Shown here piece after piece: positions 41,907-42,091 of a stretch of 43,535 bases of DNA. Both the position numbers and the translations under genes were made by a program. Source of the stretch: a virus (taxonomy: Duplodnaviria > Heunggongvirae > Uroviricota > Caudoviricetes); the IMG/VR virus record IMGVR_UViG_2740892272_000004. The stretch is one strand, 5' to 3'. The notes below the pieces were generated by a model, which was not told the origin of the DNA, ran no database searches, and saw nothing but the letters and a program-made list of their open reading frames with translations. Position 1 is the stretch's first letter; the number at the start of each line of letters is the position of its first letter.

Positions 41907-41935
41907 GATTCATCTATCCTAAAAAGTTACGAAAT

Positions 41936-41959
41936 TTGATAACTAAACTTAGTTATCAA
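41936..41959. promoter_or_regulatory. Perfect 24-bp palindrome TTGATAACTAA-AC-TTAGTTATCAA in the ner/repressor intergenic region, candidate operator
   Basis: 11-bp perfect inverted arms; contains CTTAGT, reminiscent of the Mu Ner recognition sequence; lies about 30 bp upstream of ner between divergent regulator genes. Confidence 0.45.
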
Positions 41960-42091
41960 GTTTGATATAAGTATTGATCCACTTCTGCTTCATGTAAAGC
42001 AAAAAAAACATCTTTCTTTTGTCTATTGTGGATCAATGGTTGCTGACAACACTAAAAGTTAATAATTTCAAATTGATAGGAAGAAAAGAAA

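Follow-up and report, generated by a model that had tools for sequence, protein, structure and literature searches.

A candidate lysis/lysogeny switch with two putative operator classes between ner and the repressor gene of a Mu-like prophage

The right end of the stretch of DNA analysed here (IMG/VR virus record IMGVR_UViG_2740892272_000004, 43,535 nucleotides; hereafter the window) is the left end of a Mu-like prophage, as judged from gene content and profile matches, with ner, a Mu-type transposase gene A, B and left-end repeats present. This study concerns the spacer of 185 bp (41907-42091) that separates ner from a divergent repressor gene, and the two inverted repeats that it contains. 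ner (41676-41906, minus strand) encodes a protein of 76 aa of the Ner/HTH_35 family (Pfam HTH_35, E 1e-21; E 3.7e-13 to the Mu Ner structure 1NEQ), which is 43% identical to Mu Ner and 41% identical to D108 Ner. It is the first gene in the early transposase operon, followed downstream by transposase A (39586-41673, minus strand), with Mu-transpos_C and Mu N-terminal DNA-binding domains, and by B (38571-39512, minus strand), with a MuB domain. The N-terminus of the transposase is MuA-like (PF02316; 37% identical to residues 3-64 of MuA, 62 aa, E 4e-10).

On the other side of the spacer, the repressor gene (42092-42637, plus strand) encodes an XRE-type protein of 181 aa, which consists of a 434/P22-c2-like helix-turn-helix (HTH) domain and an all-helical C-terminal domain. 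Its Pfam matches are weak (HTH_3 / Phage_CI_repr, residues 21-77), and it belongs to PHROG 3037, 'transcriptional repressor' (E 4.5e-60). The structural model has a five-helix HTH at residues ~19-75 with a TM-score of 0.8 to P22 c2 and 434 Cro. The C-terminal half gave no PDB analogue with the model and no S24 peptidase match in the domain search. The repressor had been called 'CI-type' in an earlier note on this DNA, which is appropriate for the XRE/434-like HTH, but beyond the HTH the protein is not lambda-CI-like and it has no S24 peptidase domain. Its relatives occupy the left end of other Mu-like phages, including Yersinia vB_YpM_5/6 and Pseudomonas VW-6B ('C repressor'). Differing repressor types among Mu-like phages are already on record (PMC8541194).

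The spacer is AT-rich (28% GC) and divergent, as the same note had described it, and both of the repeats reported there exist according to sequence reading and the repeat finder. The palindrome TTGATAACTAA-AC-TTAGTTATCAA (41936-41959) has perfect arms of 11 nt around a centre of 2 nt. The central AC is not self-complementary, so that 22 of 24 positions are symmetric and 'perfect' describes the arms but not the whole 24-bp element; the arms reach 15 nt (41932-41963) if one mismatch is allowed. The second repeat consists of ATTGATCCAC (41973-41982) and GTGGATCAAT (42028-42037), two arms of 10 nt with 100% complementarity, 55 bp apart centre to centre. Its arms had been placed about 40 bp apart at about 41976..42038, but the real gap is 45 nt and the pair extends over 41973-42037.

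Chance estimates came from simulating the 185-bp spacer with a first-order Markov model, in which 0.2% of the trials contained a perfect inverted repeat of at least 11 nt per arm with a gap of at most 10 nt. At the scale of the whole 43.5-kb window, some inverted repeat with arms of at least 11 nt was found in 13% of simulations, and the palindrome alone is only moderately unusual at this scale. TTGATAAC-N8-GTTATCAA, the outer part of the palindrome, is single-copy in the window even at 3 mismatches (0.11 expected), and exact ATTGATCCAC is represented in the window by the two arms only. The pentamer TTGAT occurs six times on both strands of the spacer against 1.2 expected (P about 0.001); the sites lie within 41936-42077, in both palindrome arms, in both arms of the second pair, and at 41962 and 42073; the pentamer might be a core common to these sites and recognised by the invariant repressor helix. 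The case for function rests on conservation in relatives and not on these chance figures.

For the comparison, five E. coli variants, the Yersinia phage vB_YpM_5, 19 loci from one-genome-per-species contigs and 28 IMG/VR loci (loci of the collection carry the prefix L) were gathered. ner and the repressor gene are divergent neighbours in 52 loci, which gave 46 distinct spacers from E. coli, Yersinia phages and other Enterobacterales; promoter and motif scans covered 23 loci. All of these spacers have a common backbone. Read from the ner side, it begins with the ner ribosome-binding site, an alternating GATAA/TTATC-like array of ~45 bp and AGTATT followed by TGATC. After ~10 variable bases come (C/A)AxGTAAAG, a stretch rich in A and CTTTCTTT(T)G; the repressor side consists of a second variable part, a TATAAT-like hexamer located ~23 nt upstream of the repressor ATG, and finally GGAAAAGAAA-ATG.

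The early promoter Pe is predicted on the minus strand, where a consensus scan found -35 TTTACA (41993-41998; GCTTTACA with its flank) and -10 AATACT (41970-41975). This TTTACA-17-AATACT is the sole minus-strand consensus match, and TTTAC[A/T/G]-17-AATACT recurs at equal distance from ner in most of the loci scanned; M18-type phages have TTGAAA-17-AATAAT at this place. The mapped Pe of Mu (GenBank promoter feature 991..1028) reads GCTTTACA-17-TATCTT and has the same -35 with flank as is present here. Because of the conserved position and the GCTTTACA common to Mu Pe, the minus-strand promoter is taken as Pe, with a predicted start near 41963. For the repressor promoter Pc, a position weight matrix scan predicts -35 TTGCTG (42040-42045), a spacing of 17 bp and -10 TAATTT (42063-42068) on the plus strand (42040-42068 in all), with a predicted start at ~42075. 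In about 8 of the 23 loci scanned, the distance from the end of the Pc -10 to the repressor ATG is 22-23 nt, and several of them have TATAAT. A plus-strand extended -10, TGaTATAAG (41963-41971), was considered as a Pc overlapping the -10 of Pe and rejected; it is unconserved (CI5 is without the TG), and the conserved candidate adjoins the repressor gene. Between the arms of the second pair, the comparison revealed a conserved core (41997-42021) composed of AAAGCAAAAAAAA, with an A8 tract at 42001-42008, and CTTTCTTTTG (42012-42021). Almost all loci, those of other immunity types and of the Yersinia phage among them, have the same AAAG-N15-CTTT spacing in this core.

The palindrome is located at ~+5 to +28 of the predicted Pe, between the predicted start and the ner ATG, which is 29 nt away. 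Judged by its invariant arms, it contains a putative Ner operator with half-sites TTGATAAC (41936-41943) and GTTATCAA (41952-41959) and a free 8-bp spacer (41944-41951). Two half-site-like sequences flank it and complete an alternating array of four members. The first member is AGTTAC (41925-41930), an imperfect GTTATC copy detected as part of direct repeat D2 and inverted repeat I2; the fourth is GATATA (41964-41969), detected in direct repeat D2 and abutting the -10 of Pe. In relatives these two places carry GTTA(T/A)CC and GGATA(A/C), respectively. The four copies at 41925, 41938, 41952 and 41964 are spaced at ~13 bp.

Five types of E. coli prophage (window-type, CI5, Z1825, M18 and FORC28) have a Ner that is 100% identical and carry TTGATAAC...GTTATCAA unchanged, while their repressors are 42-95% identical; identical Ner with invariant TTGATAAC-N8-GTTATCAA is in this way found beside three different repressor clades. 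In M18 and FORC28 the homology to the window stops directly after the palindrome. Among the E. coli prophage lineages, ner has 12 variable columns, all of them third codon positions, with zero amino acid changes, which indicates strong purifying selection on ner. Of the 57 non-coding bases at 41907-41963 only three columns vary (41944, 41948 and 41951), all within the inner 8 bp of the palindrome. The other 49 leader bases show no change, against ~7-8 changes expected at the third-position rate (12/77; rough P about 3e-4). Because the inner 8 bp vary among phages with identical Ner and the outer arms are invariant, the unit of the Ner site would be a pair of 8-bp half-sites separated by 8 free base pairs; the additional symmetry of the palindrome appears to be lineage-specific and partly incidental.

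The reciprocal mosaic is represented by E. coli 12A (L027), which has the Ner of Yersinia phage vB_YpM_5 together with the array of that phage, GTTATC-N6-GATAAC-N7-GATAAT. Its repressor is window-like (64% identical, tblastn) and is accompanied by the window-like pair TGATCCACAT / ATGTGGATCA. Over the 46 spacers, the sequence of the array tracks the Ner helix independently of the repressor clade. The helix VGQNNLYNAV corresponds to TTGATAAC, and xPDTLKNAL corresponds to CGGATAAyC-N4-6-GrTTATCCG at the identical 30-53 nt from ner. ASSTLKNAL (Sodalis) and SPSTLKNAL (L040) correspond to GGTAAG/CTTACC-type sites, in which both arms are changed with the repressor helix remaining the same. Taken as a whole, the comparison suggests that the palindrome is most likely the Ner operator.

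The arms of the second pair have a different relation to the predicted promoters. The left arm (41973-41982, plus strand), a putative repressor operator, overlaps the -10/spacer of Pe with its centre at about -14.5. The right arm (42028-42037, ATTGATCCAC on the minus strand), a putative second repressor operator, abuts the -35 of Pc, and its centre is ~-42.5 from the predicted start. ATTGATC is common to almost all spacers, but the bases that follow it sort by repressor clade and read CCAC.., CCAAAT.., CTACAAAAG.., CACTACAAAAG or TTGGCCTAT... Repressors with xFSTLNNYL(S/T)RGTEPSL go with GATCCAC..., those with ...TEPSF and HKGTEPSF with GATCCAAAT..., those with PYSTLNNYF... with GATCTACAAAAAG, those with PFSTLNNYFEKDA with GATCACTACAAAAG, and the M18-type repressor with TTGGCCTATAAAAAG. 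GATCCAC accompanies one repressor clade across six different Ner backgrounds, and Z1825 and L049, which have repressors of one clade and different Ner types, share ATCCAAAT/ATTTGG arms.

Inverted copies located 30-60 bp rightward change together with the left arm in relatives. The right-arm copy reads GTGGATCA in the window and L002, ATGTGGATCA in L027 and ATATGGATCA in L011, and L036 has a 16-nt match. Left and right arms read TATCCATAAT / ATTATGGATA in L024, TGATCCAAAT / ATTTGAATCA in L016, L042, L043 and L044, and ATTGAACCCA / TGGGTTCAAT in L014; L003 and L049 also have inverted copies of their own left-arm type. The match between left arm and right zone is better for cognate than for non-cognate combinations (8.23 vs 7.69 of 10, p 1.7e-4), a difference that is supportive only, as the loci are related. 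The transposase was rejected as the binder of the ATTGATCCAC pair, since L002-L004 share the first 70 transposase residues, yet their pairs differ. These correlations suggest that the second pair is most likely formed by sites of the XRE-type repressor. The repeats had been proposed as candidate sites for Ner and/or the repressor; the comparison supports this and appears to divide them, the palindrome going to Ner and the second pair to the repressor.

The comparison shows the sequences and positions of the repeats, how they are conserved and that each class is inherited along with its gene; from this we infer the binder of each site, the transcription starts and the regulatory outcome, and we rather favour the reading that the spacer is a lysis/lysogeny switch with two operator classes, the palindrome for Ner and the ATTGATCCAC pair for the repressor. 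Ner would bind TTGATAAC-N8-GTTATCAA, together with the weaker half-site copies at 41925 and 41964, within the first ~30 transcribed bases of ner-A-B. Bound Ner would hinder RNA polymerase at Pe and lower its own transcription and that of the transposase, as in Mu and D108, and it may oligomerise over the four half-site copies, with negative autoregulation of ner-A-B as the result. The repressor on the left arm would exclude RNA polymerase and block Pe. On the right arm, ~42 bp upstream of the predicted Pc start, it would be placed to touch polymerase, and its own synthesis could be either stimulated or limited from there. Both ATTGATCCAC copies would be immunity-specific and may cooperate across the A8 tract.

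Several observations weigh against this assignment. Each site adjoins 'its' gene, so co-inheritance can partly reflect linkage, and the conserved AGTATT may be a mere joint for recombination. Since all clades have the same recognition helix, STLNNY, in the repressor, clade-specific recognition would have to come from other residues. HTH domains of the 434/P22-c2 type normally bind dyads of 14-18 bp, and the repeat finder detected no local dyad within either 10-bp arm in the window. A strong inverted copy (at least 9 of 10) is present in only about a third of the related loci, and some clades have direct repeats instead, such as CTACAAAAG, which occurs twice in vB_YpM_5-type spacers. A search for the IHF consensus WATCAANNNNTTR with at most 1 mismatch in 41900-42150 gave no match, so none lies between the arms, and the Pc match in the window itself (TTGCTG/TAATTT) is weak.

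The palindrome also gives a stable hairpin at the 5' end of the predicted early mRNA, and such a structure could account for a stem that is conserved and a loop that varies. It is conceivable, although unlikely, that the palindrome acts mainly as RNA, as a 10-bp stem-loop at the 5' end of the ner-A-B transcript that would stabilise the mRNA or modulate ner translation. When folded, the predicted leader (from 41963 to 41895) has the palindrome as a hairpin (-15.1 kcal/mol; z -2.85), the invariant outer arms and variable inner 8 nt have the pattern of a stem plus loop, and complementary arms are kept in relatives when the sequence changes, for example to GGTAAG/CTTACC. A stem, however, would not need the half-site sequence GATAA itself, which is conserved across genera, nor the extra copies that flank the dyad at ~13-bp spacing; the vB_YpM_5-type array has three direct-repeat copies that are unable to pair, the arm sequence changes with the Ner helix, and Mu and D108 have protein-bound dyads at this place. 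Neither an Rfam family nor a terminator-like site was found at the palindrome; Rfam gave no match at E<=1 except a spurious long non-coding RNA elsewhere. The alternating GTTAYC/GATAAC array was also considered as a terminator or attenuator and rejected, as there is no terminator-like site and the predicted start leaves the fourth segment outside the RNA. A role in RNA and a Ner site may coexist. The assignment could also be reversed or shared, so that the repressor (or both proteins) would bind the GATAAC palindrome as an O3-like site and Ner would bind TTGATCC, in the manner of lambda CI/Cro. The invariance of the repressor helix, the position of GATAA among the most conserved repeated motifs, and the excess of TTGAT, which is present in all four arms, agree with such an exchange. 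What makes it quite improbable is the behaviour of the natural variants: in Sodalis and L040 the arrays change from GATAA to GTAAG with the repressor helix unchanged and the Ner helix altered from D to S, M18-type phages are without TTGATCC, yet identical in Ner and palindrome, and L027 and L001 are identical in Ner and array but differ in their repressors and Pe-spacer sequences.

The second pair, on the other hand, might not be a unit at all. In that case the left arm would be kept as a part of the early promoter or for Dam control, and the right arm would be due to chance or lineage-specific. The promoters of the IS10 and Tn5 transposases are controlled by Dam methylation; GATC is present here in both arms (41976-41979 and 42031-42034) and, as part of ATTGATC, abuts the -10 of Pe in 41 of 46 spacers, whatever the repressor clade. 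A perfect long-range inverted repeat of 10 nt appeared in 4.8% of the spacer simulations, that is, in about 5% of random spacers, which also counts against the operator reading of the pair, and many loci lack a strong right arm. This explanation is possible for the common ATTGATC core, but it leaves unexplained that the arms co-change in several independent clades (CCAC/GTGG, CCAAAT/ATTTGG or ATTTGA, TATCCATAAT/ATTATGGATA and the 16-nt match of L036) and that cognate matches exceed non-cognate ones, and for the pair as a whole we regard it as unlikely. Finally, the repeats could be sites for a host protein (IHF, FNR, DnaA or Fis) or for the transposase, as in a transposition enhancer. The operator region of Mu doubles as an enhancer and has an IHF site (PMC3145075), the transposase encoded here keeps the MuA-like N-terminal DNA-binding domain, and TGATCCAC resembles the DnaA box TTATCCACA by eye. 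Nevertheless, this is a highly improbable origin of both repeats, because 41900-42150 has no IHF match, the arms differ among phages with the same transposase N-terminal domain, the sites vary between phages of one host species, and the invariant TTTCTTT motifs are better enhancer candidates. As to individual host proteins, FNR was rejected because the TTGAT/ATCAA pairs have a spacing of N14 and more instead of N4, Fur because the GATAAT hexamers of relatives are 13 bp apart and not contiguous, and the DnaA box because it matches at 7/9 positions only and is unconserved.

A more elaborate form of the two-operator switch, which must be considered decidedly doubtful, is that the repressor bridges the two distant inverted arms and thereby shuts Pe, tunes Pc and hides an enhancer at once, with Dam-sensitive GATC in both arms. 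The arms bracket the -35 of Pe, the A8 tract and the TTTCTTT core, which would be the candidate transposition enhancer, and the coupling of repressor and transposase sites known from Mu would be undone in such an arrangement. Through the GATC in its arms, the switch would respond to Dam methylation and replication.

The dyads of Mu and D108, read directly from the genome records, are the Ner sites of these phages according to the work of Tolias, Kukolj and DuBow and of Goosen and van de Putte, with which the GenBank notes agree. D108 Ner is reported, in work of Kukolj and DuBow and of Benevides and co-workers in 1994 (cited in PMC10434027), to bind its dyad and to oligomerise on an operator of ~61 bp. 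The D108 operator consists of two 11-bp perfect inverted repeats, CCGTGAGCTAC-N8-GTAGCTCACGG. A dyad around an 8-bp AT-rich spacer is also present here, the distance from ner is 24 nt there and 29 nt here, and both dyads adjoin a Ner-family gene within a left end of Mu type. The half-site sequences are, however, unrelated (CCGTGAGCTAC vs TTGATAAC), the Ner proteins are only 41% identical, and the constrained half-sites here are 8 bp long and accompanied by two weaker flanking copies at ~13-bp spacing. In Mu, the operator has two 12-bp ANYTARCTAAGT sites, ATTTAACTAAGT-N6-ACTTAGCTAGCT at 1029-1058, directly after Pe (991-1028). It occupies the same place relative to a Pe with the same GCTTTACA -35, and the half-sites share TAACTAA. 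On the other hand, the TAACTAA centres are 9 bp apart here but 17 bp apart in Mu, and phages with one and the same Ner do not conserve the inner TAA/TTA bases common to Mu and this site. In Mu, transcription from the repressor promoter is also lowered by Ner, whereas the predicted Pc here is more than 80 bp from the palindrome and does not overlap it.

The composite control region with divergent c and ner genes and putative repressor sites on Pe resembles O1-O3 and the enhancer of Mu, and so do the T-rich motifs upstream of the -35 of Pe and in the first repressor codons, which read CTTTTT/CTTTTC in Mu and CTTTCTTTT here. The Mu repressor shares a winged-helix DNA-binding domain with the N-terminus of the transposase, and both use the same sites (PMC3145075). 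The repressor studied here has a 434/P22-c2-type HTH and is unrelated to the transposase N-terminus; therefore, the shared-site arrangement of Mu cannot apply as such. A further difference from Mu is that no IHF consensus was found here in 41900-42150. The lambdoid OR region is similar in its XRE-type HTH repressor, its divergent promoters, and putative operators overlapping the predicted lytic and maintenance promoters. Lambda CI at OR2 activates PRM from near -42, and the right arm is likewise near -42 of the predicted maintenance promoter. Unlike OR, the spacer has two isolated 10-mers 55 bp apart instead of tandem 17-bp dyads, the repressor has no S24 autocleavage domain, and Ner, in the place of Cro, would use an operator of its own and not share the repressor sites. 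EnrR of Edwardsiella (PDB 7F9H/7F9I) is a sequence relative of Ner (E 2.9e-11). Two HTH monomers of this Ner-family protein bind to an AT-rich palindrome (PMC9023278), but the protein acts as a nucleoid-associated anti-silencer, its targets in the genome are many, with the consensus AATAAATNATTTATT, and it is not a phage switch protein.

The T-rich motifs form a quartet of CTTTCTTTT / GAAAAGAAA(G) copies, located upstream of the -35 of Pe (42012-42020), at the ribosome-binding site of the repressor gene (42083-42091) and twice in repressor codons 9-17 (42116-42125 and 42135-42144). For exact CTTTCTTTT, 0.35 copies are expected in the window and four are present, three in the quartet and the fourth at 39602. 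Nearly all of the 23 related loci, other immunity types among them, conserve the motifs at each of the four places. Motifs of the CTTTCTTTT type cluster at 41997-42021 and 42083-42144 and are conserved in all immunity types. The two motifs within the gene are perfect inverted copies of each other over 10 nt, with 9 nt between them, the Ser codon in the encoded 'KES' is almost always AGY, and L016 and L017 have compensatory AAAAGCAA...TTGCTTTT. In Mu, CTTTTT/CTTTTC motifs are found at the equivalent places (O2, O1). The quartet members are candidates for enhancer sites of the MuA-like N-terminal domain, or for alternative mRNA hairpins that would hide or free the Shine-Dalgarno sequence.

Towards the end of the prophage, three direct CGGTATCAAATGA-like copies with 0-2 mismatches (42710-42722, 42762-42774 and 42857-42869) lie within 160 bp of the phage end and are probably the end-binding sites of the transposase, equivalent to L1-L3 of attL. 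The phage end is near 42881 and adjoins an IS66-family TnpB gene. A small open reading frame (43191-43421; no Pfam match) lies upstream of this gene and overlaps it, and is probably orf1 of the insertion sequence (IS). The ends of the window, 1-142 and 43390-43531, form a perfect 142-nt inverted repeat, and each of them comprises the first codons of the small open reading frame together with the sequence upstream of it. The left copy stops ~32 nt into this frame, and the right copy runs through it and through TnpB to the prophage end. Two inverted IS copies thus flank the block of ipaH and prophage, which points to a rearrangement or an assembly feature. At 301-2016 (plus strand) the window encodes a 571-aa effector of the IpaH type, with type III secretion system LRR and NEL E3 ligase domains (E 7e-77), which suggests Shigella or enteroinvasive E. 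coli as the source; a perfect hairpin with 11-nt arms (217-244) is located just upstream of its gene. At 9388-9536 and 10572-10720 there are inverted repeats, one of 86 nt (93%) and one of 50 nt (84%), on either side of ~1.1 kb, and the layout of 9388-10720 resembles an invertible tail-fibre region like the G segment of Mu.

What does this assignment mean for the transposable phages? The general picture of their choice between lysis and lysogeny is unchanged. The spacer is what would be expected of an ordinary Mu-like control region, with the distinction that the immunity repressor of this prophage group is of the XRE type and not of the Mu c type. Among the E. coli genomes, none was found with two copies, that is, with two prophages of the same Ner but different repressors in one genome, an arrangement that would demonstrate hetero-immunity. 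If the assignment is true, it would provide operator sequences and a promoter map for widespread, uncharacterised Mu-like prophages of E. coli/Shigella, Yersinia, Serratia, Klebsiella and relatives, and would make homo- and hetero-immune prophages predictable. The natural mosaics, which combine one Ner with several repressors and one repressor clade with several types of Ner, constitute a specificity panel for DNA recognition by the Ner and XRE families.

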